Source of the DNA: Alphaproteobacteria bacterium
Lineage (GTDB): Bacteria > Pseudomonadota > Alphaproteobacteria > Caulobacterales > Aquidulcibacteraceae
Direction: 5' to 3'
Assembly: GCA_027485915.1 (NCBI GenBank)
Contig: JAIXQA010000071.1
Span: 30,567-94,566 of the forward strand
Length of the DNA stretch: 64,000 bases
The position numbers and the translations under genes were made by a program. How positions within the stretch are numbered: the stretch's first letter is position 1; every line of letters starts with the position of its first letter. This document shows positions 5,171 through 26,965 of this stretch, piece after piece. Under the pieces are notes generated by a model, which was not told the DNA's origin, ran no database searches, and was given only the letters and a program-made list of their open reading frames with translations.

Positions 5171-5372
5171 AAGCTGGTGGTCAAGGGGCATGGTCGGCCT
5201 GCCGATCACGCGACGCGTGACCCCTTGAGGGCCAGATTTGGTGCAACAAAATCACCTAGCAGCTTCAGGGCAAGCAAAGCGCCGCATTGAAGCTGTTCCT
5301 AGGCGTCCTAGAGAGTGACTGTTACCTGCTCCATTTGTGTCTTGGATTTGCGAACTAACTTGGTCTGCTTTG
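5171..5372 (+). repeat. Element backbone block B, copy 1
   Basis: Similar to 26539-26789 (which carries a ~50 bp insertion); similarity ends at GGTCTGCTTTG. Confidence 0.88.
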
Positions 5373-5838
5373 CGCGAAGGGTGGTTTACAAAACTGCTTG
5401 GGTTCGAGTTTCAAAGGAGACATTGCGAAAACGAAAAATGGAGGCTGATGAGGAAACTCAGCATGTTAAATATTCAGACTACCAAAATTTGGGGCATGGG
5501 AATTTTATGTACTGCATTGGGCGGTTCTTTGACATGAGAACCACCAAATGATGCTGTTGCGCTTCGCGGGTTGACAAGTGCTATCCCTTTCTGCTCAGCG
5601 CGGTTTATAGGTGGGTGCATCTTGCACCTAACGTACAGTATAACGATCTCAAGTAAATTTGACTGTGCTTACATCCTTGTTATTCTAGATCTGGCGGTTA
5701 ATGAATCGTCCTGCTCGCCCTAAAATGGCGTTTGGCACTCAATTGCAGAATGCTGCGCCTTGGACCGGATTCTATTCAGACCCAGGACACAGCCCCGCCG
5801 AGCCATTGACGGTGCTCTTTTATGCTTGGATTTCGAAA

Positions 5839-7245
5839 ATGTTGCTGACCATTTCTACAACCCATCAACCAGCAACAGACTTGGGTTACGTCCTGATGAA
5901 GCACCCAGATAGTGTTCATAGTATTGACGTATCCTTTGGTCGAGCCACGCTATTCTACCCTTTTTCGACAGAAGAACGCTGCACTGCCGCGATAACACTC
6001 CAAGTTGACCCGGTTGCGTTGGTGAGGGGTAAAACGAGTATCGAAGAACAATATGTCAATGATCGGCCTTATGCCGCCTCTTCATTGCTTTCGGTTGCCT
6101 TGGGGCGATTATTGAATACTGCAATGGCGGGTCGTTCCAAGCTCCGTCAGGAGCTGGCCGACACGCCAATTCCGCTTGAGTGCTTTCTAACACCGCTCCC
6201 AGCGCGTGGCTCGGCTGACTTACTCGCGCGATTGTTTGAACCATTGGGATACAAAGTTACGGTAGAGCCAGTTCCCCTTGATCCGGCTCATCCCGATTGG
6301 GGCCCAAGCCCCTACGTCTCGCTAAGCTTAAAAGGCAACGTACGCGTTCAGGAACTCCTCACGCATTTGTTCGTGCTGATTCCGGTTTTGGACAACGCGA
6401 AGCATTACTACGTCGGCGAAGATGAAGTCAAAAAATTGCTTAAAAAAGGTGACGGTTGGCTTGAAGTTCACCCTGATAAGGAGCTGATTGTTCGCCGGTA
6501 CCTATTGGGCTTCAAGTCTTTAGTGCGGTCTGCATCAGAGAAACTGGACGACCGAGCAGAAGCAGAGGAGTTTGAAGAGCACGCGACACGAGATGCTGTG
6601 GAGGAAAAACTCGAAAAGCCAATTAGGCTCAACACACAGCGAATGGACTATATAGCCAATTTGATCCGCCAGCTTGATGCTGCGAGCGTTCTTGACCTTG
6701 GTTGCGGGGAGGGTCGCTTACTACGCCAACTCTTACTGATAAAAGGACTGGACCGGATCGTTGGGGTGGAAGTTGCACCGCGCGTTTTGGCCAAGGCAGG
6801 TGAGCGCTTGAAACTAGATCACATGCCCGACATTAAACGAAAACGTATCGAGCTTCTTCAAGGGTCACTTGTTTATCGCGATGACCGCCTGAAAGGCTTT
6901 GATGTTGCAGCTCTTGTTGAGGTGATAGAGCATGTCGATGCTGAACGGCTACCCGCGCTAGAAGCGGCACTGTTCGGTCATGCGCAACCAGCCAACGTCA
7001 TCGTAACAACGCCCAATAGTGAGTATAATGTATTGTTTGAAGGCATGGAGCCAGAGGCGCTGCGGCACCCAGACCATCGGTTTGAATGGTCACGTTCACA
7101 ATTCAATAACTGGGCCGAGGCAGTCGCTAAAGGATATGGGTATAATGTGCGGTATGAAGGGATCGGGCACGAAGATCAGACGCATGGATATCCGACCCAA
7201 GTCGCCATTTTTTCGCGCGCAAAGCCAACACAGGTAACTGTATGA
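5839..7245 (+). CDS. hen1: 3'-terminal RNA ribose 2'-O-methyltransferase Hen1
   Basis: MLLTISTTHQPATDLGYVLMKHP N-terminus, YVNDRPY, SAM motif VLDLGCGEG, EVIEH and HPDHRFEW; start moved from 5701 to ATG 5839. Confidence 0.95.
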   Translation: MLLTISTTHQPATDLGYVLMKHPDSVHSIDVSFGRATLFYPFSTEERCTAAITLQVDPVALVRGKTSIEEQYVNDRPYAASSLLSVALGRLLNTAMAGRSKLRQELADTPIPLECFLTPLPARGSADLLARLFEPLGYKVTVEPVPLDPAHPDWGPSPYVSLSLKGNVRVQELLTHLFVLIPVLDNAKHYYVGEDEVKKLLKKGDGWLEVHPDKELIVRRYLLGFKSLVRSASEKLDDRAEAEEFEEHATRDAVEEKLEKPIRLNTQRMDYIANLIRQLDAASVLDLGCGEGRLLRQLLLIKGLDRIVGVEVAPRVLAKAGERLKLDHMPDIKRKRIELLQGSLVYRDDRLKGFDVAALVEVIEHVDAERLPALEAALFGHAQPANVIVTTPNSEYNVLFEGMEPEALRHPDHRFEWSRSQFNNWAEAVAKGYGYNVRYEGIGHEDQTHGYPTQVAIFSRAKPTQVTV

Positions 7246-9785
7246 AGATCGAGGTTCCAGAATTTGCGCTTGTCCTACTTGTCGGTGCGTCGGGGATGGG
7301 TAAGTCCACCTTTGCTGCAAAGCACTTTCTACCTACAGAAGTCGTTTCCTCAGATCGCATGCGTGGCTGGATAGCCGACGACGAAACCGATCAGTCCGCG
7401 ACGAGTGATGCTTTTGATGTGCTGAATTTGATAGTTGAAAAGCGCCTTAAGAATCGCCGGTTTACCGTTATTGACGCAACAAACGTTCAACCCGAAGCTC
7501 GAAAAGGCCTCGTTGCCTTGGCGCGCAAATGGCACGCCTTGATCGTCGCGATTACATTCGAATTGCCAGAGGCAGTTGCAATATCTCGCAACGCTTTGCG
7601 GCCGGATCGACAGTTTGGAGCCGGGCCTGTTCGGCGGCAAATCTTGAACTTAAAGCGCTCCGTAAAAAATATGACGCGCGAGGGGATTCGCTATGTACAC
7701 CGACTGCAATCTCTAGACGAGGTCGAAGCCGTTGAAATCACTCGGACAAGGCTTTGGACTGACCGACGCAATGATACCGGCCCGTTTGATATCATTGGTG
7801 ACGTTCACGGTTGTGCAGACGAACTTGAGATAATTCTTGATAAACTCGGCTATGAAGTCAGGTGGGACGACAAAAAGGTAAGCGTAACGCCGCCGCCGGG
7901 CCGTCGTGCAATCTTTGTTGGTGACCTGGTTGATCGCGGTCCGCGATCTCCTGATGTCTTGCGCATCGCCAAGCATATGGTGGATTCTGGGACAGCGCTG
8001 GCTGTAGTGGGAAACCATGATGACAAGCTGAAGCGTCACCTAGATGGACGAAACGTCAAAACGACGCATGGGCTTGCGGAAACGATTGAGCAATTGGCGC
8101 AAGAACCGCCGGAGTTTCTGGCAGAAATGCGCAAATGGCTTGATGGCCTGATAAGCCATTACCTCCTTGACGATGGCAAACTGGTTGTCGCGCATGCGGG
8201 CCTAAGAGAAGAAATGCAAGGGCGCGCATCTGGTGCGATTCGAAGTTTCTGCATGTATGGTGAGACAACTGGCGAGATTGATGAGTTTGGCCTTCCGGTC
8301 CGTTGGGACTGGGCGTCAGAGTACAAAGGGCGGGCTAAAGTTGTCTTTGGTCATACGCCTGTTCAAGAAGCAAGTTGGGTCAATGGGACAATTTGCATCG
8401 ACACTGGCTGCGTGTTCGGTGGCAAACTGACTGCACTTCGCTACCCTGAGCTGGAATTGGTTTCGGTTGATGCCAAAGAGATGTATTACGAGCCAATCCG
8501 CCCGCTTCAATCACCAATTGCCGAAAGGCTCAGTGGTCCGGTCGACCAACTCGATATCGCAGATGTCCTCGGCAAACAGGTCATTCAAACTGATCTTTTT
8601 GGATATGTCACGATCCAAGAAGACAATTCTGCCGCAGCACTTGAGATTATGACACGCTTTGCAGTGGATCCTCATTGGCTGATCCACTTACCGCCTACGA
8701 TGTCTCCTTCACAATCGAGCAGCCAAGATGGATGGCTCGAACGACCCGAAGAAGCTTTTAGCTATTACGGCTCAAGGGGCGTAAAGCAGATTGTACTTGA
8801 AGAAAAGCACATGGGCTCGCGCGCTCTAGTAGTTTTATCAAAGTCGGAGGAAGAGGCTGCAAAGCGATTTGGCGTCCGCGATGGATCGCGCGGCTCTATC
8901 GTTACACGCACCGGCAGGCGTTTTTTCAATGATTTAGAACTCGAAGCAGAAGTCTTGCAGCGCATCGATGACGCCATGAAAGTTTCGAACCTTTGGGCGG
9001 AGCTCGAGACCGATTGGGTGCTTTGGGATTGTGAAATTATGCCTTGGAGCATGAAGGCCGGGGCACTTGTACGTGGACAATATGCTTCAGTCGGCGCGGC
9101 GGCCAATGCCGGCCTATCAGCGCTCGATGAAGCCTTGCAGGCCGCACTTGCCCGTGGGGTCGACATCGCAGGTCTGGCATCACAAACATCGCAGCGGCTT
9201 GAGGCAGCGGCCAACTATCGAACTGCTTACAATCGCTACATCAGGCCATTTTCGGGCATTGCTGACCTAAAGATTGCGCCGTTCCACCTATTAGCTTCAG
9301 AAGGTCAGGTACATAGCAATCAGAATCACCTCTGGCACATGAAGATGGCGCATGAATTGGCGGCTGGAGACAGCGCCTTATTGCTGGCAACTGACTATCG
9401 GTCCATTGACCTCGAAGATGCATCGGAAGTCAAAGCGGCTATAGAATGGTGGGAAGAATTAACGGCCGGTGGTGGTGAGGGCATGGTCGTCAAGCCGCTA
9501 GACTATGTCTCACGGGACAAGCGTGGCCTTTTGCAGCCAGCCATCAAGTGCCGTGGCCGAGAGTATTTGCGGATAATCTACGGACCTGACTATGATCATA
9601 CAGGCAATATTGAGCGTCTCAAGAAACGAAGTCTTGGCCATAAGCAATCAATGGCATTACGTGAGTTTGCCTTGGGGATCGAGGCCCTCAAGCGGTTTGT
9701 AAATCACGCCCCGCTAACCCGTGTACACCAATGTGTGTTTGGGGTGCTGGCAATGGAGAGTGAGCCCGTTGATCCGAGGCTGTAA
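7242..9785 (+). CDS. pnkp: Polynucleotide kinase-phosphatase-ligase Pnkp
   Basis: P-loop GASGMGKST; phosphoesterase GDVHG/GDLVDRG/GNHD; ligase motifs EEKHMGSR, EGMVVKP, KCRGREYL; overlaps hen1 stop. Confidence 0.95.
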   Translation: MKIEVPEFALVLLVGASGMGKSTFAAKHFLPTEVVSSDRMRGWIADDETDQSATSDAFDVLNLIVEKRLKNRRFTVIDATNVQPEARKGLVALARKWHALIVAITFELPEAVAISRNALRPDRQFGAGPVRRQILNLKRSVKNMTREGIRYVHRLQSLDEVEAVEITRTRLWTDRRNDTGPFDIIGDVHGCADELEIILDKLGYEVRWDDKKVSVTPPPGRRAIFVGDLVDRGPRSPDVLRIAKHMVDSGTALAVVGNHDDKLKRHLDGRNVKTTHGLAETIEQLAQEPPEFLAEMRKWLDGLISHYLLDDGKLVVAHAGLREEMQGRASGAIRSFCMYGETTGEIDEFGLPVRWDWASEYKGRAKVVFGHTPVQEASWVNGTICIDTGCVFGGKLTALRYPELELVSVDAKEMYYEPIRPLQSPIAERLSGPVDQLDIADVLGKQVIQTDLFGYVTIQEDNSAAALEIMTRFAVDPHWLIHLPPTMSPSQSSSQDGWLERPEEAFSYYGSRGVKQIVLEEKHMGSRALVVLSKSEEEAAKRFGVRDGSRGSIVTRTGRRFFNDLELEAEVLQRIDDAMKVSNLWAELETDWVLWDCEIMPWSMKAGALVRGQYASVGAAANAGLSALDEALQAALARGVDIAGLASQTSQRLEAAANYRTAYNRYIRPFSGIADLKIAPFHLLASEGQVHSNQNHLWHMKMAHELAAGDSALLLATDYRSIDLEDASEVKAAIEWWEELTAGGGEGMVVKPLDYVSRDKRGLLQPAIKCRGREYLRIIYGPDYDHTGNIERLKKRSLGHKQSMALREFALGIEALKRFVNHAPLTRVHQCVFGVLAMESEPVDPRL

Positions 9786-9938
9786 CTTAACTTCTTCCGA
9801 AGCGCTCGTTTAACGGTCCGTCTGGCTTGATTTTCTCGAAGGGTATTCTGTTGCTACAATCTGACTAGCGTGCAGAAATAGAAGCAGCTGCTAAGGTGGG
9901 TCTAATGCCAAACAGGGCTGCTTCTTTAGTATTAATGT

Positions 9939-9966
9939 CCAAACCAGACCAACCGCTTTCGGCCAA
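9939..9966 (-). repeat. Palindromic spacer repeat R0 (reverse orientation)
   Basis: Reverse complement TTGGCCGAAAGCGGTTGGTCTGGTTTGG matches 17453-17480 at 26/28. Confidence 0.75.
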
Positions 9967-10060
9967 ACCCGGCCAAAACAAGAACCAATTTCCGGATTAG
10001 GAAAGCATCGCAGGGCTGGCCATAAAACCACCAAAAAAGCCCCATTCGGGCCTCTGAACT

Positions 10061-10217
10061 GACGACTTAAGACGACTTATATTGCCCAAAAATGGACGAC
10101 TTAAAGCAAGTTATAGGGGGTGTAAGATAACTTGTCTAAAATCACATATAATCAATAGGATAAACAAACTGACGACTTGGGTCCTTTTATCTTGCCCCGC
10201 AACACAAAAAACGACTT
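10061..10217 (+). repeat. Iteron-like direct repeats, [G/A]ACGACTT x5
   Basis: Copies at 10061, 10071, 10095, 10171 and 10210 in AT-rich non-coding DNA. Confidence 0.7.
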
Positions 10218-10455
10218 ACATTTCTCTGTCGCCATTCAATCATTACCATCCAAAAGCCCGCCTCATTTTCAAGCAAAGCCAACATGGCCAGCAAGTCAGG
10301 GGATCTCTAAACAATCGCGGTTGCCTGGTAGAATCGGCTGCATCCATAACTCGGGCAGTTATTGGCCATGTAGGCCCCCAGATAGGCCATGAGCGCTTGA
10401 AGCCCCACAAATGACTCCTGAGGCGTGATTTGGCTAAAGGCTAAAGCTGAGGCTG

Positions 10456-10833
10456 TTAGAACGGCAAGGGCATTGAGGCGGGCGCTAATTGCCTTTGGCG
10501 GCGCAGTTTTGATTGAGGGCCTCGGGGTTTGGACAGTGACGGGGGCAGGGGGCTTGGCGCTCGATTGTCTTGTTCGGCTGCGTAGGCTGCGACGCGCGGT
10601 TCGCTCGAGGATCTGCGGGGCGCTGAGAGGTGTTCGTGGAAATAGTCGTCGAGGTGGCGTCGCCAATACATAGCGCGGTCACCGACATGGGTGCAAAGCG
10701 GGCCGCACCCTTCATGGAATTTCCGCGCGAGTGTCTGGGCTGCCATCTCTAAGCCCAAGTCTGTCAAATAGGCTGCTGCGTCCTTACGGTTCAGCAAGCG
10801 ATCCCGTTTTGTCTCGGTCTCTCCATCATCCAT
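10456..10833 (-). CDS. Excisionase/AlpA-like winged HTH protein
   Basis: RLLNRKDAAAYL...AAQTLAR....G.GP......RAMYWRRHLDDY pattern typical of recombination directionality factors; basic low-complexity tail. Confidence 0.75.
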   Translation of the reverse strand: MDDGETETKRDRLLNRKDAAAYLTDLGLEMAAQTLARKFHEGCGPLCTHVGDRAMYWRRHLDDYFHEHLSAPRRSSSEPRVAAYAAEQDNRAPSPLPPSLSKPRGPQSKLRRQRQLAPASMPLPF

Positions 10834-11195
10834 GGATTCAATCCTTTTCGTCTATTTCCTTCCCTGTCAGCTGAATTTTGCTGGCAAAGGTGGTCGCTGC
10901 AGGATTTATGCCGTGAGGTTGCGAGGCAATCACCTCAAGGCCATCGCATGGCTAGCATTTCCTCGGAATTGCGCGGAATTGATTGGAATGGGTAGGTTTG
11001 AGGCCATTATGTTAAGATTACTCTGAGCGATGATGACTCAATACTTTGGAGACTTAATCGTCACGGATGTTTGTCTGATTTTGGGACAGTCTTTTTTAGG
11101 TTTAATTGAGACGGTCCCCCGCTTTTCAGAGCGAATCCGCGCCATGGGGTGGCCCATCGTCCTGCCAGTTTGTGGGTTCAAGGAATGGCGACAAT

Positions 11196-11227
11196 TTGCC
11201 GAATGCGGCTGGTCTGGTTTGGGGGCG
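11196..11227 (+). repeat. Palindromic spacer repeat R1
   Basis: TTGCCGAATGCGGCTGGTCTGGTTTGGGGGC, about 20 bp from the stop of ORF 11249-11911. Confidence 0.7.
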
Positions 11228-11248
11228 CTTGGACACAAACCGCGCAGA

Positions 11249-11911
11249 TTAGCTCCTCGTTGCGAATACCTTGCGCGTTCCCTTGAACTCGCTGTCGTTG
11301 TCTACGTTTCCGTCCGTCGAGAATCGAACCTGATCGTTGAGAAATGCATCAAAGATCGATGCGATCTCGGACTGCGTGAAATGAAATAGCTGAGTCCTGC
11401 TTTGAATGTCCGACGCGATGAGAAGCCCATCGGGCATAAATCCATTGCCAGATAGCACGCCGATGACCCGCGCGTGCAACATCTTGTCGGATATGAACTT
11501 CGGAGTCCCCATCTCGGGGTACCTCGCCGTCAAGTCGTAGTTTTTGAAGATATTGCTGGCCGTTTCGCTTACAAATGGTTCGCGCCAATCCTCGTCGGCC
11601 CTCGCAACCACCTTGTGGATCTGAAGTGCCGTGTCGCGAAAATGATCTGTTACCAGCCGACATTCGATAAGCCGCCGCATGCAGACCGCGGCAACGCCGA
11701 TCGCTCGCTCGAGCATATGATAGGGATTGTGTTCGGTTTCCGCTTCCCGCAGCGCCTCGCCAAGGTGCAAGTCGATGCGCCTCTGTTGCTCGGCCAGTTC
11801 GTTCTTCCATACATAGTCCTGCCAGCTGGAAGAGCGGACGCAGCCCATTTTGCGCATCTGCTCAAGCTGCTTTTCGATATCCTCTTGCTGCATCTGAATC
11901 CTCAGCCCCAC
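11249..11911 (-). CDS. Hypothetical protein (cassette-like)
   Basis: 220 aa globular-looking ORF between R1 and R2; true start may be an internal Met. Confidence 0.7.
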   Translation of the reverse strand: MGLRIQMQQEDIEKQLEQMRKMGCVRSSSWQDYVWKNELAEQQRRIDLHLGEALREAETEHNPYHMLERAIGVAAVCMRRLIECRLVTDHFRDTALQIHKVVARADEDWREPFVSETASNIFKNYDLTARYPEMGTPKFISDKMLHARVIGVLSGNGFMPDGLLIASDIQSRTQLFHFTQSEIASIFDAFLNDQVRFSTDGNVDNDSEFKGTRKVFATRS

Positions 11912-12140
11912 TTATGGGAATAGATATTCATCCAACTTCAGCAAACTGCAAGGCTCTTGCGGAGAGCTGCCGGAACAACGCCTGCACCGGAACCAACGGA
12001 TCGAGCCATTCAGCCTAGGGGACGCGTTCGAGGATAACCTTCTGTCGGTCATAGGTTCCACCGGGAACACTAGCCAGCCTCCTCAGAAAGCGGATTCACC
12101 GGACGGTGCGATTGCACAGCAATGTCGGGGGCGCTTATTC

Positions 12141-12277
12141 AACGTCCGGTTTCAAGCAACCGCCGCCCCGTCCCATAACGACCATCCTTGGAGCAGTTGA
12201 GACCGGCGGCATTTCGGCAATAGTTGGCCGATTGCTGCTGGTCCGCTTTGGGAGCTTGGGCGGCGTAAGCGGACGTT
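12141..12277 (+). repeat. Palindromic spacer repeat R2 (long form)
   Basis: ~135 bp similar to 14390-14523; ends GGTCCGCTTTGGGAGC...AAGCGGACGTT. Confidence 0.85.
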
Positions 12278-12393
12278 TTGAGCTCCTGCGCGCCAAAGGC
12301 AGCTTTCGCTCTATCTAGCTTGTTCCATTTCCTTGATGCACGTTCTAAGAATTCAGATAATTCAAGTACGCGTTTAACCTTAAAGTAGATGGA

Positions 12394-12981
12394 TTGATGA
12401 ACAAAATGATCACCCCAGCGCTCCTTACTGAAGAACGAATACTATGGGAAGGTAAGGCGTTCCGAGGGATCATATTCCGGCCAATCGATTTGTTCTTGGT
12501 GCCGCTTAGCCTTGTTTTTGGTGGCCTATCACTGGTCTGGATTGGGAGTGCTGAGGGCACAGCTGAAGATCTAATTCTGAAACTAGGTTGCCTACCGATC
12601 CTTATTTTTGGCTTGTATGGGGCGTTAGGTAGATTTGTAATCGACGCCAGCATACGAAGGAAAATCGCCTATTTCGTGACGAATAAGCGGGTGCTCATCG
12701 TAAACAGCCATGACGGATCGACCGCTGAATGGGTCGGGATTGACAGCCTTCCTTCACTAGAGCTCGATGAGCGTCCAGACGGCTCCGGCACGATCCGTTT
12801 TGGTAAATCAGTTGGTTGGTGGACGGGTAACTTTACCCCGGAAAATGGAAGGGTCTTGGACCAGCTAGAAAGTGACATGGACATGATTTGGCAACCAATG
12901 TCGGACCCAACACCACAGTTTATAAGGATTCCGAATGCCCGCTCGGTGTATGAATTGATCCAGAGTCTGATTAAGCAATAA
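12394..12981 (+). CDS. Membrane protein with bacterial PH-like domain
   Basis: EERILWEG, two TM helices, YFVTNKRVLI, DGSGTIRFG, FIRIPNARSVYELI. Confidence 0.75.
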   Translation: MMNKMITPALLTEERILWEGKAFRGIIFRPIDLFLVPLSLVFGGLSLVWIGSAEGTAEDLILKLGCLPILIFGLYGALGRFVIDASIRRKIAYFVTNKRVLIVNSHDGSTAEWVGIDSLPSLELDERPDGSGTIRFGKSVGWWTGNFTPENGRVLDQLESDMDMIWQPMSDPTPQFIRIPNARSVYELIQSLIKQ

Positions 12982-13067
12982 GCAACATCTCCTGGCAGTT
13001 TGACGAAAACAAATTGGTGTGTCCGTTGGCTCCAGTCAGGATCTCCAAGTTTCTTTCCGCAAGGCAA

Positions 13068-13124
13068 CCTCTGGCCGAAAGGGGCTGGTCTGCTTTGGGG
13101 GCGTTGCTGGCGAAAGCGGACGTT
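13068..13124 (+). repeat. Palindromic spacer repeat R3
   Basis: CTCTGGCCGAAAGGGGCTGGTCTGCTTTGGGGGCGTTGCTGGCGAAAGCGGACGTT. Confidence 0.8.
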
Positions 13125-13240
13125 CAAAGGGTCTAGGCCCAATTTGACTGTCGCCAGCTGCCTTGGAAATGGAGCAGGCCAGATGGATGGCACATTCCGG
13201 CTCTAACTATCCAGTTACGCCTATAATTGGCTGAAGGCGG

Positions 13241-14212
13241 TCATCGCTCAAGTCCATCGGCGACGACTTCGCGGCCTAATTGCGGGGCTCGAATGAGGTG
13301 CCGGAAACGGTTAAACGTGTCTTCGCCTAGCAAACTTGAATAGGCCATAAGGCAACGCGGGTCGTATGGTTCTCTGTCTAGCCACGACCAAGGTTCAAAG
13401 CGTGCACCTGCTCGAACCAAGGCTGCATCGATTTTTTCCACTTCAGTTACCCAATTCGCTGAAACTGGTTTGGCACCGTCAATCCGGGTGCTACCATCAT
13501 TTTTGAAGTGAACTTCATAAATCGGATCGTCTCCGTCATCGGTGTGGTTGCACCCGACTTCAATTCGATTTGCATTGGCCCAGTAGCGGATTGTACGGTC
13601 GGGCAAAAAAGTATGCTGTTCTTCATATCGATCTGAAAAATAGAGTGTGAACGCGTTAAGCTCGCGTGCGGTAACGATAGTTGATGCAAGTGCAAATGCG
13701 GCTGCCAAAAGTCCAAAGCGATTTGCTGATAAAATTATGAATCTCCGGATGTAGCGAGTCGGATGCGGATCGTCCGCACGCTCGCTGCTCACCATTCGTA
13801 AGCGAGTGCCTGCTGCTCGAAAGGTACCCAAGGAACTTGTGACCGCTTGCAAAAACTCCACCGCAGCCTGCCTTGGTACAAACGCGACTATTACAAGGAA
13901 GATCCAAGCGGAAGCAAAAATCCAAGCGAAGAGGCCAATCACCGGGCCTATGCCAAAGTTATGATAGTACAATAGCGCACCGGAAGACTTGGCTGCAGAA
14001 AGCGCATTTTGCTCGATTTGCACTTCGAGAATAGGCCAAACCCAGAGCCATTTGACTATGATACCGGATACAAACACAATGTAAAAGCATACCGTTGGCC
14101 ATCGAATTAAAGGTGGTTCTTGATTACGAAGATAGACAGCGACGGGTCTCGGCACACCAATACTCACGAGCTCCTCTTCAGTCATTACCTGGTCGGAATT
14201 ACTCATGAACAC
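13241..14212 (-). CDS. Hypothetical multi-pass membrane protein (cassette-like)
   Basis: 323 aa, three hydrophobic helices and a soluble C-terminal domain; between R3 and R4. Confidence 0.7.
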   Translation of the reverse strand: MFMSNSDQVMTEEELVSIGVPRPVAVYLRNQEPPLIRWPTVCFYIVFVSGIIVKWLWVWPILEVQIEQNALSAAKSSGALLYYHNFGIGPVIGLFAWIFASAWIFLVIVAFVPRQAAVEFLQAVTSSLGTFRAAGTRLRMVSSERADDPHPTRYIRRFIILSANRFGLLAAAFALASTIVTARELNAFTLYFSDRYEEQHTFLPDRTIRYWANANRIEVGCNHTDDGDDPIYEVHFKNDGSTRIDGAKPVSANWVTEVEKIDAALVRAGARFEPWSWLDREPYDPRCLMAYSSLLGEDTFNRFRHLIRAPQLGREVVADGLER

Positions 14213-14389
14213 CTCGCAATTGGCCTAGCTACAGCCCACCTCAAAAAGTGGCATCAATCCTCCAACGCCTAATCCAGTTCCGAACAGTCATCAACCTTGA
14301 GTTCTGGTGGTCCAACTTTCCTAGAATTTAGCCATGAGCCTGTGGCATCCTTAGACGAATTTGGAGCGCACTTATTACTTGAGCCATTT

Positions 14390-14523
14390 AATGTCGGCTT
14401 TCAAGCAACCGCCAGCCCACCCCAAACAACCACCCTTGGCGCGTTTGAGACGGTCGGCATTTCGGCAATAGTTGGCCGATTGCGGATGGTCTGGTTTGGG
14501 GAGCGAGGGCGGTGAAAGCTGCC
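14390..14523 (+). repeat. Palindromic spacer repeat R4 (long form)
   Basis: AATGTCGGCTTTCAAGCAACCGCC...TTGGCCGATTGCGGATGGTCTGGTTTGGGGAGC...GAAAGCTGCC; aligns with R2. Confidence 0.85.
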
Positions 14524-14619
14524 TTTTAATGGCGAACAGATTCTTCCGATAAATCGCGGAAGCTGCGGCTCGACGGCAGGCCGCACCTTTTTTTATGATG
14601 GTTGTTTCCTAAGCTCGCA

Positions 14620-14940
14620 CTATTCGTTATCGTGCGATTTCAAGGCAGACAATTCGGCGCTTTCACGCTTTAATGGGCGCGAAACTGGACAAACTTCTTG
14701 GACGTAGGAATTCAGAGTGTTGACCAGATTCTCGCCAATCAGGCGGTAATAAACATATTGGCCACGCTTTTCACCGGCGATTAAGCCGGCATTTTCTAGG
14801 ATCGAAAGATGCTGAGATACCGCTGGCTTGGACATGTCAAAGCGCGCGGCAATCTCACCCGCACTGAGCTCTGCCTCAGACAAATAAGCAAGGATCTTCC
14901 GTCGGGGGGTAGAGGCGAGTGCTTCGAAAATTTTCTGCAT
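14620..14940 (-). CDS. ArsR/SmtB family repressor (SdpR-like)
   Basis: IFEALASTPRRKILAYL...SAGEIAARFDMSKPAVSQHLSILENAGLI...KRGQYVYY. Confidence 0.92.
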   Translation of the reverse strand: MQKIFEALASTPRRKILAYLSEAELSAGEIAARFDMSKPAVSQHLSILENAGLIAGEKRGQYVYYRLIGENLVNTLNSYVQEVCPVSRPLKRESAELSALKSHDNE

Positions 14941-14958
14941 AGTTATAATTAAGGAATA

Positions 14959-17448: not shown

Positions 17449-17507
17449 ACTCTTGGCCGAAAGCGGACGGTCTGGTTTGGGGTGCGTAAGGTGGGAAAGC
17501 TGCCGTT
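17449..17507 (+). repeat. Palindromic spacer repeat R5
   Basis: CTCTTGGCCGAAAGCGGACGGTCTGGTTTGGGGTGCGTAAGGTGGGAAAGCTGCCGTT. Confidence 0.8.
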
Positions 17508-17754
17508 CCGAAGAGTGGGAGCACTTCAATCGCCGAATAATTTTAGTCAGAAATGATCCCGGTAAGCAGGCCGGATTCTCTCCTTTTAAATATAACAAAC
17601 TAGCCTTCACTTAGGCCTCAGAGCCTTAGTCTAGTCCTTAGCAAACGATTATTACGGACAGAGATTATTTTTTGCTTGTGTAATCCTAAATCCGTGGCAA
17701 ATTTCCTTACCTTAAATGTTTAATAACCAAGAAAATAAAATTGGGTGGGTTTTC

Positions 17755-20700
17755 ATGGCTGACTTAGAGAATAAAGTTATTGCCAATTCAAATTGTTTGG
17801 AACTCGCTGCTCCAAGATGGGCGGCGCTTCTTGCCTTCTTAATCGGCCTCCTGTCCGGCAATCTGGCTTTAGCCCAAGCCAGTCCAGCTTACGCAGGTTT
17901 GCATGCTCCACTTGTGCGGAGCATGGACAGCAACAATGTAAACTTGTTGGCGGGGCCCAGTTTTGTCGTAACCGACGTTACAATTGGTGATCCCCAAGTT
18001 GGTGGCCTCGAGTTTTCGAGGTCCTTCAATACAGTACACGGAGGTCTCTTTGGGAGCTGGACAGTCAGTCCGGGGTCCGAGCAGGTAGTTGGGACCAATG
18101 GTTGGGTGGCGGAAGACTATTCAGCTTATCTCGGCTATGGCGTCACGTATGGGCACGGCAGCCAAGTTTTCGAACTCACAGGTGGTGCTGAAGCTGGCGG
18201 CACATATATCTCGCAAGCAGCAAACGGCGAAACTCTAGAAATCGATTTATTCAATAATCAATTCACTGATCGCAGTCGCTTTTCTTTCTACAAAAGGGAC
18301 GGAAGCCGATTAGTTTTTGAGCGGCGTCTTTTGAGGTCCGTCGAAAAGCCAAATGGAATTGTGATTACATATAACTACGCAAGTGTTTTGGATTCTGGCT
18401 ATACGCGAGAAATTCTGCGGTCGGTGACCTCCAACGCGGGCTATATGCTTCACTTCCAGTACGGCTCTCCCGGTACAGGTCTGAGATATGAAGTGAGCGA
18501 GCATAGCTTTGAGATAACCAAAGTTGTCGGGATTAATACGAGAATTTATCCGTGCGACCCGCTGGCGGTAATCTGCGCTGATGCATTCAACGGAGTGACT
18601 TGGCCTTCCGTTACTTTTAGGCGGGAATCAGCTGGGCTTATGCTGGTGGGCAGCTATTCAGACGGGCGCTTAACAAAATTTAGGTCTGAATACTCAAATA
18701 CCGCAACCTATATGCCAGGTAGTTGGGCAAAAGCGGAATTGAGCATTCAAAGCGCAGCTGGAAACAGCATTTCGATTGGAAGCTATCAGGCGACCCGCTT
18801 TACCAACTATATTCAAACGAGCCAAGTATCACGCAATGGTTCGTTCAACTATCGGTTTGATACCCAAGGCGGAGGTCAAAACGGGATTATTGAGCCATTG
18901 CGGATAATTGGCGGTTCAGTAACTGGACCCGCGAGCTATACCTCCAGTTGGACCACCGATCAGCAGTGTCAGTTTACAGTCTTCGGCATTTGCAGTCCTG
19001 ATCTTCTTTCGACAGTAACCGTCAATGGCCGCACCACAAGGTATGCCTATGGCTGTGCCAACCCTGAATGCATGATGACTGATTGGAATCCTAAGCGATT
19101 AATCCGTGTGACTCAGCATGATGGAGACTATACCGATGTTCAATACGATAAGCGGGGCAATATTCTAAAGCTTATAAAGACCCCGAAGCCAGGTTCTGGC
19201 CTCGCTGTGATCGTTGAAACTGCTGTTTACCCAGAGGTTGGCAGTCTTTTGTGCGTTAACCGGAAAACCTGCAATCAACCTATCTCGACTAGGGACGCGG
19301 CAGGTAACCAAACAGATTATATTTATGAGGCTGCCCGCGGTGACTTACTGAGCAAGATTGCACCGGCTCCGGGTGGAACGGGGCCCTATGCAACAGTGCG
19401 CCCAACAACCAATTATACCTATGAGAATGTTGGCGGCTCCGGTATCTGGAAACTCAAGACGACCTCAATATGTGCCATAGCAGCGACTTGCTCCGGAAGC
19501 GCAAGCAATTCAGTAGTTCAATTCAATTACAATCATCCCAACTATCTCTTGTCAGACGAGACAAAGTCCTCTGGAGATGGTGCCATTACGGCCACGACAG
19601 CACTGACTTACACCGCACTTGGTGACCTGGAGTCGACGGACGGACCGTTGCCTGGCACCTTTGATAAGTCGTGGGCTTTTTACGATGTGATGCGCCGAAA
19701 AGTTGCAACAGTAGGGCCTGATCCAGACGAAGGGGGGCCACTATTGCCCCGTGCTCAAAAATTGACTCTAAACGCTGCTGGGCTTGTTACACTGACAGAT
19801 ATCGGGACGGTTGCTTCGCCACAAAATTGGGCCAGCCTTACCGTCCTTAAACGAGAGGAAACAGCATACGATAGCTATGGGAGGAAAACGCGCCAACTGG
19901 TGCGCGATTATACTTTGGCGGGCGGAGCCATCCAAAGGGCAACAAACTGGAGCTATGATGGTGCAGGAAGGGTCCAATGTGAAGCAAATCGCATGAACCC
20001 CGCCTCCTTTCTGCAGGCAGTTTCGGCGTGCGTCCAGACAACTCAAAATCCAAGCTTTGGTCCAGATCGAATTACCCGTACTAGCTATACGGCGAATGGC
20101 GACATTTCGAAGATTGAAGAGGGCTTAGGCACACCGCTTTTGCGAAATGCACGAGTCATGACCTATCTGGCACCAGGGCAAGTCTCCACAATTTCTGACG
20201 CCAATGGGAACCGGACTACTTATTCATATGATGGATTTAATCGTCTGATTAAGACGCGTTTCCCTAGTGCGACAACGGCCGGGACCAGCTCTACTACTGA
20301 CTACACCGCCGAAACCTTTGATAATTTCGGTCGACCGAAAACTCAGCGCACGCGAAGCGGTTATGTCTTTACTTTGAGTTACGACAACCTCAGTCGGGTT
20401 GTGTCGCGTATTGGAGCTGGAAATTCAACAACTTATGCCTTTGCGTATGACGTAAAGGGCCGAACACTAAGCACCACAAATGTTCAGTCGGGTGTAAGCA
20501 CCATTGCATCGGCAACCTACGATGCATTTGATCGGCAGATTACCGATACGACGCCAAATGGCACTGTCAGTTATGTCTATGATGCGGCTGATCGCAGGGC
20601 TCGCCTGACTTGGCCCAATGGTTATTTTGTTACATACGAATATGACAGGACTAATGCCTTAAAAGCGATTAGGGACAACACTGCAGCACTTTTGGTGAGC

Positions 20701-22137
20701 TACAATTATGACAATTTAGGCCGACGCTCGCAAATTGCGCGTGGCAATTCAACAACAACTAACTATGCCTATGAAGCCAGCGGGGGACTTGATAGTTTGT
20801 CTCACGATCTTGCGGGGACAGTCAACGACACCGCAAGTGCCTTTGACTATAATAGCGTTGGCCAAATCACTACGCGAAACATTTCAAATGCTGCTTACCG
20901 TTGGAATGCGTCAACATTGGTCAATGATGCTTATGTTCCAAACGGACTCAACCAGATCGGTTCACGAAACGGAATTGCCTTTTCCTATGACACACAAGGC
21001 AACCTCACTTCTGACGGCAACAACACGTTTCAATACGACAAAGAAAATCGGCTAATCGCATCACCTTCGCGTGGTATTGCCATTAAGTATGACGCCCTGG
21101 GAAGGCTTGCTAGCACAAGTGCGGCCTTGATCGGAACTGCTCAGTTCCTTTATGATGGCAGGCAATTGATTTGGGAAAGCAGCGAGGATGGGTCACAGCG
21201 GCTTTTTGTGCACGGGGTAGGGCCCGATGAGCCCGTCTTGGCAATCGAGAACGGTACGAAATATTGGTACCACGCTGATGAACGCGGTTCGATTGTCGCG
21301 CGATCAGATAGTGCGGGTAACCTCGTAGGTGCAGTCAATACATATGACGAATTTGGCATTCCCTCGGCATCGAACTCGGGAAGGCTGCAATATACCGGGC
21401 AAATGTGGCTGCCTACTTTGCAACTCTATCACTATAAGGCTCGCCAGTATCGACCTGACCTTGGTCGATTCATGCAGACTGACCCAATTGGATATACGGA
21501 TCAGATCAACCTGTATGCTTATGTTGGTAATGATCCTATTAACAAGAGCGACCCCACAGGGCTAGCGCAAGATTGCGGAAACGGAACAGCAGCCATGCCT
21601 GGCGGGTGTCCAATTTCGCCAAATATGATGATGCCCGCAGATATGGCGGGCGTTAATTTCTACGGAGGCCGAATAGGAGTATCTTCGCCAGGTTATGCGC
21701 GAAATCAGAGAATAAGCGCGGAAGCCGCAAACAGAGACGCTGCCTTTGGCCAGTATAATGCGCCACCATATCGCGCTGGCACAACTGTTGTAGAAGGACG
21801 CACTACACGAGAAATGATCACTTTGCGGTTTTCGGCGCCATCTGCAACCAATCCCAAGGGGCAAGGTGGGTGGGTTGCGCCAAACGATCCAGCGCTACTG
21901 GCCATGACACCGAAAGAGATTCAGATCGCACTACAATTGCCAACCACGCCAACTCACGTTTCAATGGTCCGCATTCCCGCTGGCACCGAGACACAAATTG
22001 GTATGGTGGGCCAACAGCCAGGCTTAGCGGCTCCGCCTTCGAGCAGCGTTCAAATCCGATTGCTTGAAAGAGTTCCAAGCAGTAATTGGGGTGACCCGGT
22101 TCCAATAGGGGAACGGCCACCCCTTCCACAGCATTAA
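17755..22137 (+). CDS. RHS/YD-repeat polymorphic toxin with signal peptide
   Basis: YD repeats; RHS core end LQYTGQMW...[22 protein letters not shown]...[18 protein letters not shown]; ~145 aa variable tip; Sec-like leader ending ALAQA; start ATG 17755 (ORF track 17716). Confidence 0.95.
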
Positions 22138-22158
22138 TAGCATTTAAGGACAGTTGTT

Positions 22159-22551
22159 TTGGATAGAGACCTTCAAATCCTTTTGTCGCGTCAAATAACC
22201 ATGTCCGTTGCGATGCCTTGGGGCAGGATCGCGTGTTACGAGACTGAAAATGGGACGATCGACGACATAACTGACAAACGAAAGCCGGCTGTCAATTTAA
22301 ACTATGAAGAGCGATTGGCCTATTACAAGATTTTCCTTTTCAAATATGCGAACAGCAATATCGTGGCGACAAACCATGATGGAAGCGTCAGATGGATTAT
22401 TCATGGGTTTACAGATTTTGGCGAACACCAACCGTTCATTGGGGTGGCGTTTGTCGATGGAAAAATTAAAGCTGAAAATTGGGTTGGGCGAGTATATGAT
22501 GTGGATCCAGAAACAGGACAATGTTCGAATGAAGTACTAAAATTACTCTGA
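22159..22551 (+). CDS. Candidate cognate immunity protein
   Basis: Small ORF 21 bp after the RHS stop, same strand; NIVAT..DGSVRW...PFIGV.....AENWVG....VDPETG. Confidence 0.65.
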   Translation: MDRDLQILLSRQITMSVAMPWGRIACYETENGTIDDITDKRKPAVNLNYEERLAYYKIFLFKYANSNIVATNHDGSVRWIIHGFTDFGEHQPFIGVAFVDGKIKAENWVGRVYDVDPETGQCSNEVLKLL

Positions 22552-23161
22552 TTCATCTATTGTTTTCAGGACATGTGACTAAATGATATTGGCGCGGCTT
22601 GCCAGCACGTGAACCACCATTTTTCAAGGGCCCTGTGAGATCTGATGGCATCGGAAGAGCAAGGTTGAGTACTGCGGAAGGGTAAGCGTTCAAGCTTGGC
22701 GGACCGGAGGTGTAGTTGGTTGATGTAACGCAATGGTCAGACCCACGGATGTAGAGCGACATATTCGCTTTAAAGCTTTGGACTCTAGGGCAGCCTGAGT
22801 CCCCAAAAGCGAAAGTACAAGACCATCACAGTAGCTACGACTCTTGCCAATAGCATCTCGATCATTGAGCTGGACTGCCCCGTTAGGGGTAATATAACTC
22901 CAATGTTTTAGTACCTCCGGCAAGCTAGGCTTGGAGTGTTCGAACATCGTGAAGGCGACTGATGCGCGCGGGACCTTACAACCTGATTGACAGGGCTGAT
23001 CATTTAAAGGCCAAGACAATGACGACCTTGCCGCGATTAGACGAACGGACTTTGAGCAGCCAATGCGGGTAACGCAGCGCGTCCCGGCGGTTTACGATTT
23101 ACTAGGCGCTTACGGCTCGCTTTAAAATTGTCATTAGCCTACAATCTAATAGTGAATTCTT

Positions 23162-23584
23162 TTAGTTGCAACTCGCAGTTTGCAAAACACGCGTCCCGCC
23201 TGAACAAACATAAGTCGCAGTACCAGTCCAGATAAACCGGCCAGGATCCACAAATGACTGCGAGACGCCGGGACTGACTGCGGGAACAAAGCTATCGCCT
23301 GACGTGCAGGTTTTTCCGGCAACAGTCCATGTGAGTGGCTGGCCGCTCATTTCAGGACAGCTTGTCGCCGGAGCAGACATAGCAGCTCTTGCTGCCGGAG
23401 ACGACACCGAAACACGGTTGTCAGCTTTATCAAAAGCATAATTGACTGTTTTGCCATTATCTTTAACAACTTGTACAAGCCTGCCAAGTGCATCGTAAGT
23501 GTAGGTTTCCGCAGATGCAAACGGGACCGCTACAGCCATCACTCCAAGCAAGCCTAGTAAAATAAGAGCTCTTTTCTTGATCAT
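23162..23584 (-). CDS. Small secreted YD-repeat protein with Cys-rich C-terminal module
   Basis: Signal peptide (…PFASA), ETYTYDALGRL…YAFDKADNR, C-terminal domain with 4 Cys. Confidence 0.8.
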   Translation of the reverse strand: MIKKRALILLGLLGVMAVAVPFASAETYTYDALGRLVQVVKDNGKTVNYAFDKADNRVSVSSPAARAAMSAPATSCPEMSGQPLTWTVAGKTCTSGDSFVPAVSPGVSQSFVDPGRFIWTGTATYVCSGGTRVLQTASCN

Positions 23585-23621
23585 CTTACCACTCCAGAAG
23601 GCTTGGTTGCCGAATAAATAA

Positions 23622-24140
23622 TTACTTATTCTCTCTAGCTAGCGCTCCGCGAGCACGAGAATATTGGTTAGCATATTTGTAGGAAGCTTGCACGCAATTT
23701 GTTGCAAATACAACTAGCCGCTCATCTTGGCCTGGAAATTGGCGTGCAAACAATCGAAGTTCGCGATTACGATCTAGGCTAGGCCGTTCTTCGTTTACTT
23801 CAAGCATCCGCGAAAGTGTGCCGATAACTAAGGAGGCCTTTAGAAGGTCATTCTGCCGAAGTCTTGCAGCCCCAAGGCTCAAAGTAGCTTGCTGGTTTGG
23901 CAATGTGCCCGCGAGATTTTGTAATGCCGCGCTGCACCGACCAAAATAAATCGCCCGCCCCGGATCACTTGGAAGACGCCCCGGCCCTCGGTTATTGCCT
24001 TCCCTGGCAGTTGGCAAGAAAAGCGCATCAGCTGGCAACCTTTGAAGCTCTTGGTTTCGGAAATATTCTTGGAGCCCGGCGGACACGAATAGTAGGACTA
24101 CAAATGCGAAGGCAATCAAACCTGAGTTGCGGATTATCAT
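23622..24140 (-). CDS. Hypothetical N-terminally anchored protein
   Basis: 172 aa, N-terminal hydrophobic helix; 37 bp upstream of the YD gene, same strand. Confidence 0.6.
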   Translation of the reverse strand: MIIRNSGLIAFAFVVLLFVSAGLQEYFRNQELQRLPADALFLPTAREGNNRGPGRLPSDPGRAIYFGRCSAALQNLAGTLPNQQATLSLGAARLRQNDLLKASLVIGTLSRMLEVNEERPSLDRNRELRLFARQFPGQDERLVVFATNCVQASYKYANQYSRARGALARENK

Positions 24141-24589
24141 AGAAACACACGACTACTTAAAGGACACAACAGTACCCTGCCTCTTTTGTGCGCTAGCTGC
24201 AACATGGCTTGGCCTTCGCATCAAACAGAGTCTCAGCAAAAGATTGGGTAGGACACAAAATCCAGCTTAGAACACGACACTGGGGCCACTTTCACTAGTC
24301 CGAAAAACTACTTTGAATTTCGCCTACCTTGGTTGACCTCTCGGTCTCGGAAAAGGCGAAACTGAGGCCAAACAATACCTCTCAGCTTTGGGCTACTCGC
24401 TAGTGTTAAGACACCTGAGGTATGACCCAGGCCCGTAGCATGTGCTGCACGCTATCAGTATCTATAATCGACTTGAAGTGCACCCATTCTGCTTCCCAGT
24501 TAATGTCCGCTTTCGAGCCACCGCCAACACACCTCTATCGGCAACCCTTGGCGCAAAGCAGACGAGATGGCTCCCACTCAACGCCTCGC

Positions 24590-25822: not shown

Positions 25823-25926
25823 AATCTACTCCTGTCGAACAAACTTGACCCAATTTTCGACTGCCAGATTTTGCTACCTTTCAGACGCATAAAACGTGCC
25901 AAATCGTCAGTCTGAATCTCGCAGTT

Positions 25927-25946
25927 TGCTACCAATTTGCTACCAA
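25927..25946 (+). repeat. Putative integrase arm-type sites, right arm
   Basis: TGCTACCAATTTGCTACCAA identical to 4423-4442; partial TTGCTACC at 25871. Confidence 0.7.
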
Positions 25947-26071
25947 CTGAACGGATTTCGTCAGAAAATGACGGAAGCGTCAAGAATGAGGCGGAATGGC
26001 AACCCGATGAAATATATATGAAAAATCACAAATTGGAACGTTCAGGAATAAGGCAAAAATGTGGCATGAAA

Positions 26072-26121
26072 AGACTACGAATCTGAGGGTCGGGCGTTCG
26101 AATCGCTCCGGGCGCGCCATT
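26072..26121 (+). repeat. attR core (duplicated tRNA-Arg 3' half)
   Basis: Exact copy of 4329-4378; lacks the tRNA 5' half. Confidence 0.95.
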
Positions 26122-26965
26122 TTCTCCGAGACATTTTCGGTTCAAGCCAAACCCCTAGCGGGGTCTGCAGCCAAATACCAAAAACCTAGTGAAGTTATCT
26201 GGAACGACTTTTTTCTGCAGTGGTAGCAGCAGTGACCACCAGAACATTGGTAGCAAACGGGCATTTCGGCGCTTTCTGAGTGTTTCCAGCCCATTCTGAT
26301 CGTTACGATTCGTTTCGATGGCTGTGCAATGCGTCTTCACTAATGACGCAGACGGCACTTTTCTTTAGTAACGATTTTCGCTGTTAACGCGTGCGTGAAT
26401 AGCCCAGCTTCTTAGTATTCGGCATTCGTCATCAATCTGAGCTTTGACTAATGACTCATTGCTTCAACTTGCGCTTGAACTGGCGGCTCGGATTCTAATC
26501 AAACTTGATCGCGGCCGTTGTCCTTGTGAAATGCGTCCAAGGCTGGCGGTCAAGGGGAATGGTCGGCCTGCCGATCACGCTAATTTCGATCAACGCGCAA
26601 CTTCGACCCTTGCGGATCGAAACGCGCTAAGGCGTGACCCCTTGAGGGCCAGATTGGGGGCTATAAAATCACTCAACAGCTTCAGGGCAAGCACAGCGCC
26701 GCATTGAAGCTGTTCCTAGGCGTCCTAGAGCGTGGCTCTTGTTTGCTTCATTTGGGTCGTGGATACGCAAACTAACTCGGTCTGCTTTGTGCCAAACTAG
26801 GTCACTAAACCGCAATTCAATGGAGCCCGAAAGCGGACATAGGTTGGGGGGAATAGTGGAGGTCGGATAAGCTTAAGCTGGGGTACCTCGTTAGCGAAAA
26901 TCGCACAAAGACAAAATTAACCGAAGCAAATTCCTCTCTCTTTGATAGAATTGAGAGGAGCGCCT

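Follow-up and report, generated by a model that had tools for sequence, protein, structure and literature searches.

To our knowledge, integrons are the only well-understood bacterial system that keeps genes as cassettes and reshuffles them at dedicated sites. Hotspots for defence genes and other cargo, defined by flanking core genes, are known from P4-like satellites and other integrative elements. The pdif modules of Acinetobacter plasmids depend on XerC/XerD and are bounded by 28-bp sites (11-6-11) in alternating orientation. In Neisseria, exchange at the intergenic mosaic elements (NIME) with their dRS3 repeats and at the minimal mobile elements is thought to proceed by transformation and homologous recombination, dRS3 being a target of IS110/Piv-type recombinases. 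The locus described here is a stretch of 64,000 nt (the window) from contig JAIXQA010000071.1 (positions 30,567 to 94,566; assembly GCA_027485915.1) of an alphaproteobacterium of the family Aquidulcibacteraceae. Its organization is probably best explained by two related integrative islands that stand in tandem at a tRNA-Arg gene and whose cargo modules are swapped at a genus-specific family of short sites. The coordinates of the features are collected in Table 1.

The last 47 nt of tRNA-Arg(ACG) recur exactly at the far end of island 1 (4377-26119), which this repeat brackets (2 matches in the window, 0 expected by chance). The island carries a tyrosine integrase of the P4 type, and the decamer TTGCTACCAA lies inside both of its ends as putative arm-type repeats of this integrase. 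A search for the decamer gave 11 matches against 4.1 expected; the exact ones are concentrated at the island ends, 5 of the 6 in 64 kb falling within ~150 nt of the two attachment (att) repeats. A tRNA-flanking repeat, an integrase and putative arm repeats are the standard anatomy of an island inserted at a tRNA 3' end, and block A, the conserved segment next to the tRNA gene, is the att-proximal arm. The same arm begins the DNA after the second att repeat, which is therefore read as the start of a second, older island of the same family (island 2, from 26120). Island 2 has no integrase and no distal repeat, and its direct pair of arm repeats is degraded by an 11-nt deletion; it is an older remnant that retains the tRNA-proximal arm and has lost its integrase. 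The first-pass annotation, which missed the tRNA-Arg gene and the 47-nt repeat, had taken the shared segments for two sister backbones. They are not free-standing elements but the attL-side arms of two tandem tRNA-Arg islands, and the tRNA gene with the repeat of its 3' end explains why the backbone is duplicated. The duplication itself stands, as block A aligns at 91% identity (4434-4679 with 26166-26411) and the non-coding block B at 86% (5154-5211 and 5215-5378 with 26523-26580 and 26632-26795).

Tandem islands are in themselves ordinary. Hyphomonadaceae bacterium UKL13-1 (G005), whose complete genome was sequenced with PacBio, and a further genome, G013, show the same layout, so that it is neither an assembly artefact nor recent, and upstream synteny extends across both the tRNA and block A in each of the genus genomes examined. 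The integrase of the window and its orthologue in UKL13-1 share 99% protein and 92% DNA identity, with 0.38 synonymous (dS) and 0.008 non-synonymous (dN) substitutions per site. The resulting dN/dS of 0.022 points to an integrase under strong purifying selection amid a changing cargo, and by these sequence measures the island behaves as a resident. In G013 (G013C2 33796-34933; L029 13796-14933) the integrase breaks off at codon 84 and passes straight into the middle of a second block B, the result of a deletion in which attR, the tRNA fragment and the following island's block A were lost. The contig CALRLV020000002.1 (38966 nt), from a metagenome-assembled genome labelled Ferrovibrio terrae, carries the same tRNA-Arg island as G013:C2; G013 falls in the genus of the window, and the label of the contig, or its binning, looks wrong. 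Downstream of island 2, the segment 30400-36500 (short-chain dehydrogenases, a glyoxalase, TetR, an amidohydrolase and a major facilitator superfamily transporter) has no DNA match in the other 15 genus genomes, and the strain-specific region therefore reaches well past the island.

In both islands block B runs into GGTCTGCTTTG, with exact copies at 5362-5372 and 26779-26789. If one mismatch is tolerated, the window contains 10 such motifs where 1.4 would be expected, a number that none of 100 shuffles attained, and 9 of the 10 fall between 5.3 and 26.8 kb. It is the left motif (B) of a site of ~60 nt, in which B is followed by a loop and by the right motif CGAAAGCGGAC (A''). The long-loop form of the site (hp2) continues from B into CGCCAA and, by way of a 38-39-nt loop, reaches an A'' motif that reads CGAAAGCGGACAT. 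When ten backbone copies from seven genomes are aligned, hp2 has two loop alleles, and the sequences past A'' all differ. Copy 1 of the window has a degenerate alpha-like loop and copy 2 the beta loop, while hp2 copies with the same loop allele stay alike to 3 nt beyond A''. The cargo of island 1 (5425-24504) is bracketed by an inverted pair of hp2 sites, as it is in G005 and G013, and a 20-nt inverted repeat pairs copy 1 with 24544-24563. Alpha-type hp2 sites also follow two other integrases of UKL13-1, the three integrases being 27-39% identical to one another, and a truncated integrase on contig C28 of the window's own genome.

The first-pass annotation had the two copies part exactly at the core of a palindromic repeat and proposed this repeat as a point of cargo exchange. 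The copies do differ from 5373 and 26790 onwards, directly after GGTCTGCTTTG. The position of this break reflects the two loop alleles of a longer site, because of which the window copies part right after B, and the right motif returns after ~39 nt. Copy 1 then leads into Hen1-Pnkp, identified by Pfam, and copy 2 into a DUF6932 protein with a nucleotidyltransferase motif and then a protein with a JAB-like motif, as had been read from the sequence. At its core the proposal was borne out by other elements that carry blocks A and B: block B is conserved up to GGTCTGCTTTG(CGCCAA) in all ten backbone copies from the seven genomes, and at least seven gene sets follow this one breakpoint. These are Hen1-Pnkp, DUF6932, a two-component system with a TonB receptor, DUF4132, TadG/VWA, a BAAT hydrolase, and a flavoprotein with adenosine deaminase.

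Within the cargo a short-loop form of the site (c1) is found, with the sequence TTGGCCGAWWGCGGAT-GGTCTGSTTTGG-(12-15 nt)-GGCGAAAGCGGACGTT. It consists of three copies of one 12-nt motif, namely A (GGCCGAAAGCGGAT) in direct orientation, B (GGTCTGSTTTGG) inverted and, after 12-15 nt, A'' again direct; TGGCCGA is invariant in this architecture. The c1 positions in the window are 9940 (-), 11211, 12240, 13087, 14488 and 17469. A sequence model of c1 detected it in 16 of 16 genus genomes and in 0 of 132 other genomes of the family, with clustered copies numbering from 1 in G015 to 31 in UKL13-1 (18-20 in the genome of the window). Downstream of a tRNA-Thr(CGT) gene, a c1 site lies at ~300 nt and two genomes differ after it (own contig C30:31105-31582; L050 18049-18518 in G005), which looks like a second tRNA-linked variable locus with the same repeat. 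The likeness of the site to the tRNA att core or the arm repeats amounts to just 7-8 nt (GGTCTGCT in block A) and was treated as chance.

Every cargo match longer than 250 nt among five islands ends inside a site. Module X is alike in four genomes up to GGTCTGGTTTGGG, beyond which loop, A'' and neighbour are particular to each genome. In a census that covered 72 sites, 32 pairs share the A-B flank only and 7 the A'' flank only (39 discordant), against only 3 non-redundant pairs concordant in both flanks. Identity stops 0-5 nt after B, and the loop and A'' go with the other module. The junction is thus a few bases 3' of B, where A-B stays with one module and loop-A'' with the next. In keeping with a platform (arm and integrase) that is inherited and conserved across genomes while the modules are replaced, the cargo common to the window island and UKL13-1 comprises only 1.29 kb of ~19 kb. 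Modules are also met in other places: the module at 13072-14501 recurs at a different locus on another contig of G013, with the loop and A'' identical at 24 of 24 positions in a module that is only 80% identical overall. Three genomes carry a c1-bounded RelE/HTH (helix-turn-helix) toxin-antitoxin module of 1.17 kb in their tRNA-Arg island, and G002 has it at two loci, which makes at least three contexts, and the DUF3088 module adjoins c1 sites at other loci in four other genomes.

As to mechanism, modules would leave and enter by recombination at the sites in a cassette-like manner. The driver may well be an enzyme-catalysed site-specific reaction, which is held here only tentatively; with more reserve, RecA or short-homology recombination after gene transfer is a possible driver, whereas mobilisation in trans by a transposase is improbable, as is any other driver. 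If an enzyme acts, B and A'' would be inverted recombinase-binding arms around the crossover, A would be an accessory site, and the resident integrases of the islands would be candidate enzymes. A conserved tripartite site with A'' at a fixed distance past the junction, the fixed placement of hp2 after integrase genes, and the 24 of 24 identical positions of loop and A'' in the otherwise 80% identical module would all be pointers to an enzyme, judged from the sequences. The longest exact run common to two sites has a median of 11 nt (90th percentile 17 nt). RecA needs ~23-27 bp of identity in Escherichia coli, and runs of this length fall below that requirement, which points to an enzyme. A rather doubtful extension of the enzyme reading makes the locus a cassette platform of a non-integron kind, with a resident integrase, hp2 as an attI-like and the c1 family as attC-like sites, on which modules would be shuffled between islands and genomes. 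Modules with promoters of their own (toxin-antitoxin, conflict systems, metabolic genes) would then be captured, excised and shuffled at a fixed point 3' of GGTCTGSTTTGG, the recombination being site-specific and double-stranded.

Alternatively, there may be no dedicated machinery, and a genus-specific dispersed repeat, like the repetitive extragenic palindromic (REP) sequences or Neisseria NIME/dRS3, provides patches of homology for swaps, deletions and insertions by RecA or short-homology recombination, either following transformation or inside the cell. This is a credible account, if not the one we would choose. Conservation within the site is highest in A-B (~33 nt), which every junction leaves on one side, as if crossovers took place inside it; since A-B is conserved in every site, a crossover anywhere within it gives the same apparent junction, and the fixed junction is therefore compatible with homologous recombination. 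The genome of the window (99.96% complete) encodes five tyrosine recombinases, which are XerC, XerD, two island integrases and one integrase fragment; an integron integrase, a serine recombinase and a Y1 transposase (PF01797) are all absent from it. Arrays without a nearby integrase exist, for example five sites at 2.71 Mb in UKL13-1, which are far from any integrase. The dispersed-repeat account is at odds with exact identities between sites that are mostly 8-14 nt, short for RecA, with an A'' that is conserved at a fixed distance beyond the junction and would be unneeded for exchange by homology, and with the fixed position and orientation of hp2 directly after four different integrase genes.

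Besides the absence of an integrase near some arrays and the compatibility of the fixed junction with homologous recombination, several further points weigh against site-specific swapping of modules as set out above. The genome survey tied no recombinase to the sites, and the integrases adjacent to hp2 are too divergent (27-39%) for a shared specificity to be assumed. Classical tyrosine-recombinase cores have a fixed overlap of 6-8 bp, and the B-A'' spacing here varies (12-15 nt and 38-39 nt). The B:A'' stem is no better than in shuffled sequence, and there is accordingly no attC-like hairpin. One right-shared pair in the census has a different loop, an exception to the rule that loop and A'' travel together. 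No relative with an empty site was found, nor was an empty-versus-filled triple among the 72 sites. Finally, several alleles share fixed breakpoints in the slot between blocks A and B, where no repeat is present, so that fixed breakpoints alone do not prove site-specific exchange; this slot is also in favour of dispersed repeats that serve as homology patches.

This second variable slot, between A and B, had been noted in the first-pass annotation as an orphan gene in one copy and a short stretch of unrelated DNA in the other, and this description holds (a 120-aa orphan open reading frame, ORF, against 111-132 nt). The orphan ORF has no Pfam, NCBIfam or PADLOC match. At least four alleles share the same breakpoints, namely 132 nt, the orphan ORF, a Fic gene of 1.2 kb in four genomes and a different Fic gene; the Fic/DOC genes encode ~400 aa in two unrelated versions. 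No repeat is present at the slot edges, and the slot behaves as an ordinary hotspot between conserved flanks. The earlier idea of exchange at fixed slots therefore needs to be divided: both slots have fixed breakpoints and varied content, but the A/B slot is without the repeat.

A further reading places the repeats in transcription. Terminators, mRNA-stabilising hairpins or operators that travel with genes would leave breaks only as markers of intergenic gaps. All sites are indeed intergenic, a short T run follows A'' in some, and the long-loop sites face outward from the integrase and block B in an insulator-like manner. Nevertheless, such a function is very improbable as the explanation of the breaks. 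Which way a site faces bears no relation to the direction of its neighbouring genes (34:22 and 25:31 for the flanking genes, which point either way), yet orientation is uniform within arrays, with 29 of 33 pairs of adjacent sites co-oriented (29:4), and the breaks fall within 0-5 nt of one position, not merely somewhere in the gap. Compared with shuffled sequence, the B:A'' stem gave z values of +0.05 to -1.85, no better than by chance, and B and A'' do not covary, as the variants GGTCTGG and GCTGCC are not compensatory. The absence of compensation fits two motifs that belong to different modules. From the unstable stem, the lack of covariation and the independence from gene orientation it follows that the site acts as double-stranded DNA. 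Its role is at the DNA level and not in transcription, and it is neither a terminator nor an attC-like hairpin. Block B (5160-5372 and 26529-26789) is 82-93% conserved over nine copies with long predicted hairpins, of which a nested one of ~50 nt is optional (7 of 9 copies). Compensatory change was seen in only 2 of 77 pairs of these hairpins, the divergence among the nine copies being small for judging covariation. An Rfam search of 4000-32000 (E up to 1) matched the tRNA only, so that block B, the sites and the miniature inverted-repeat transposable element (MITE) described below belong to no described RNA family.

A 1.45-kb insertion sequence (IS) of the IS110 family (PF01548 and PF02371; 382-aa transposase) is found in UKL13-1, where two arrays contain it, and in the window's genome on contig C76. 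The 5' non-coding region of IS110 elements is where these encode their guide (bridge) RNA. Here, the MITE consists of the 5' non-coding region of the IS110-family element (270-400 nt) joined to the last ~20 nt of the element, and the centre of the same region has a diverged relative in block B. The MITE has no Rfam match, and dozens of copies are present genome-wide, often at contig ends (C4, C11, C19, C46, C49, C61, C62, C70, C72, C76 and others). In principle, the modules may be non-autonomous transposon-like units that are moved in trans by the IS110-family transposase, possibly guided by the RNA-like 5' region kept in the MITEs, with the sites as abutted ends or preferred targets. Five of the 7 copies of one IS110 transposase subfamily are located ≤2.5 kb from a c1 site, with sites occurring only ~1 per 100 kb. 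In four places hp2 directly precedes the left end of an IS or MITE, the gene occurs inside the two UKL13-1 arrays, and IS110 insertion is generally orientation-specific, which would fit co-oriented arrays. We nevertheless give this explanation little credence. G004, with 21 sites, has no IS110-family gene, nor have G006 and G007; the IS ends do not resemble A-B or loop-A''; and the association is equally explained if the IS merely targets the repeat. Because the gene is absent from the site-rich G004, the IS is read as a guest that targets the repeat and not as the engine of the exchange. IS1111-attC elements likewise target attC, and the IS110 elements are near the sites above chance.

Compared with described systems, the locus shares with tRNA islands of the P4/lambda integrase type the insertion at a tRNA 3' end, the direct repeat at the far side, an arm-binding integrase, putative arm repeats and a decayed second island. 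Unlike those, the platform behaves as a resident and is orthologous in several species of the genus, its integrase is under purifying selection, and the cargo has been almost entirely replaced and is bracketed and subdivided by a dedicated site family. With integrons, including sedentary chromosomal ones and clusters of attC sites lacking integron integrases (CALINs), it has in common a conserved tyrosine recombinase beside a variable array, modules of 1-3 kb, and co-oriented sites of ~60 nt. Further shared traits are a junction at a fixed point of the site, with each module carrying most of one site and found in several contexts, toxin-antitoxin cassettes, arrays without a nearby recombinase, and an IS110-family element associated with the sites. 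It differs in having no IntI, in a site at the 3' and not the 5' end of the integrase gene, and in module genes that point either way and probably have their own promoters. An integron proper was rejected, as the Xer-like proteins score 115 and 87 bits and the island integrase 35 bits on TIGR02249 (cut-off 265), and the sites have no RYYYAAC/GTTRRRY pair (R''/R' boxes) and no stable hairpin.

The pdif modules are similar in that gene modules, toxin-antitoxin pairs among them, are bounded by short recombinase-type sites in varied contexts, and module X has inverted sites; however, the arms here are 12-15 or 38-39 nt apart, a third motif is present, and most sites are in direct orientation. Searching the genome with a dif-like consensus yielded no convincing match, and the geometry of the site is unlike that of Xer/dif. 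As in Neisseria NIME/dRS3, clade-specific short repeats mark different genes between conserved flanks, but sequence and architecture differ, the arrays are co-oriented and inside integrase islands, and the junction is fixed within the repeat. REP sequences and their mosaic elements (BIME), which are linked to REP-associated tyrosine transposases (RAYT), are also intergenic dispersed imperfect palindromes and sometimes composite inverted pairs; the present sites differ by their 1-31 clustered copies per genome in variable regions and by the absence of a GTAG-type head. This candidate was also rejected, the genome having no Y1/RAYT gene (PF01797). Like the hotspots of P4 satellites, the backbone has fixed slots with alternative conflict genes (here Hen1-Pnkp, Fic, Rhs, nucleotidyltransferase with JAB-like protein, and RelE). 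Unlike them, one slot is defined by a specific repeated site, while the A/B slot does resemble a classical hotspot.

In the cargo of island 2, the DUF6932 protein has a minimal nucleotidyltransferase motif, G[GS]x9-13DxD, and matches the PADLOC candidate PDC-M63A (4.7e-10). The 441-aa protein (27598-28923) has a proline-rich N-terminus and, as its sole recognisable feature, a C-terminal RadC/JAB-like HNHPNGSEFSTDD motif; it has no sequence match in Pfam, NCBIfam, PADLOC or PDB.

Table 1. Features of the tandem tRNA-Arg islands in the window and of related loci in other genomes (strand: +, forward; -, reverse;., none assigned).
Feature	Position	Strand	Evidence or remark
tRNA-Arg(ACG), integration target	4300-4376	+	ARAGORN; Rfam tRNA 65 bits
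Left att repeat, last 47 nt of tRNA-Arg	4330-4376	+	Exact repeat
Block A copy 1, att-proximal arm	4377-4679	+	Sequence comparison
Putative arm-type repeats TTGCTACCAA near left att, two direct	4422-4442 (starts 4422, 4433)		Within block A
Putative arm-type repeat TTGCTACCAA near left att, one inverted	4515-4524		Within block A
Variable slot copy 1	4680-5153	-	Holds 120-aa orphan ORF 4741-5103 (-)
Block B copy 1, conserved non-coding, hairpin-rich	5154-5361	+	Repeat search, folding
hp2 copy 1, left bracket of cargo	5362-5424	+	B GGTCTGCTTTG, 39-nt loop, degenerate right motif CAAAGGAGACATT (5412-5424)
Hen1-Pnkp RNA repair operon, first cargo of island 1	5701-9785	+	Pfam PF12623 4.7e-101 (Hen1); PF16542 2.5e-169 (Pnkp)
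c1 site, A-B-loop-A''	9904-9991	-	nhmmer
Module X, bounded by inverted c1 sites	9939-11223	.	89-91% match in UKL13-1 (G005), G013, G009
c1 site	11170-11260	+	nhmmer
c1 site	12198-12289	+	Preceded by partial inverted long-loop site 12135-12193
c1 site	13046-13138	+	nhmmer
Module with 323-aa ORF	13072-14501	.	c1-bounded copy in G013 C1:21043-22473, 80% identity
c1 site	14446-14533	+	Preceded by partial inverted long-loop site 14384-14442; together 147-nt imperfect palindrome
c1 site	17434-17516	+	Between ArsR/desaturase module and Rhs toxin module
hp2 inverted, alpha loop allele, right bracket of cargo	24505-24564	-	26 nt downstream of integrase stop codon
Tyrosine integrase, P4-type, 410 aa	24590-25822	-	Pfam PF00589 (Phage_integrase) 2.4e-23; PF13356 (Arm-DNA-bind_3) 8.8e-12
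Two direct putative arm-type repeats TTGCTACCAA, right end of island 1	25926-25946 (starts 25926, 25937)	+	Repeat search
Right att repeat, exact copy of tRNA-Arg 3'-terminal 47 nt; island 1 end / island 2 start	26073-26119	+	
Block A copy 2 (island 2)	26120-26411	+	Sequence comparison
Variable slot copy 2, short allele	26412-26522	.	111-132 nt; also in G005, G013, G012
Block B copy 2, with extra nested hairpin ~50 nt	26523-26778	+	Repeat search, folding
hp2 copy 2, beta loop allele	26779-26840	+	Right motif CGAAAGCGGACAT at 26828-26840
Island 2 cargo: DUF6932 protein, 441-aa protein with JAB-like motif, 185-aa partner	26942-29470	+	
IS110-derived MITE, ~355 nt, one copy	29431-29755	-	Abuts third remnant of block-A tail (29769-29814), which it cuts
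Weak c1-like site (29875-29934), then DUF3088 gene (29962-30372)	29875-30372	+	
RelE/HTH module copies	L026 16482-17662 (G005); L032 5703-6884 (G009); L046 13011-14256 and L043 ~2640-3890 (G002)		
Fic/DOC slot gene, first version	L033 1034-2251 (G010)	-	Also in G014, G012, G006
Fic/DOC slot gene, second version	L036 5991-7178 (G011)	-	
MITE/IS110-related loci	L041 4293-5742; L051 3056-4508		

The genome paper of UKL13-1 makes no mention of these repeats or islands (PMC5248499). A full-text literature search for integron-like cassette systems in islands returned nothing equivalent, and a genus-wide, integron-like organization of cargo by a non-integron site family appears to be undescribed. A different lineage shows an integron-like genome pattern with unrelated sites and no integron integrase. 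If an enzyme drives the exchange, this would be a second, independent cassette system and a source of new recombination sites. Should homologous recombination be the driver, the genus would offer a clean natural example of a clade-specific repeat that organizes the flexible genome, and a warning that fixed breakpoints do not by themselves prove site-specific exchange. In both cases, the arrangement explains why each genome has different conflict genes (Hen1-Pnkp, Rhs, Fic, RelE, nucleotidyltransferase/JAB) at this tRNA.

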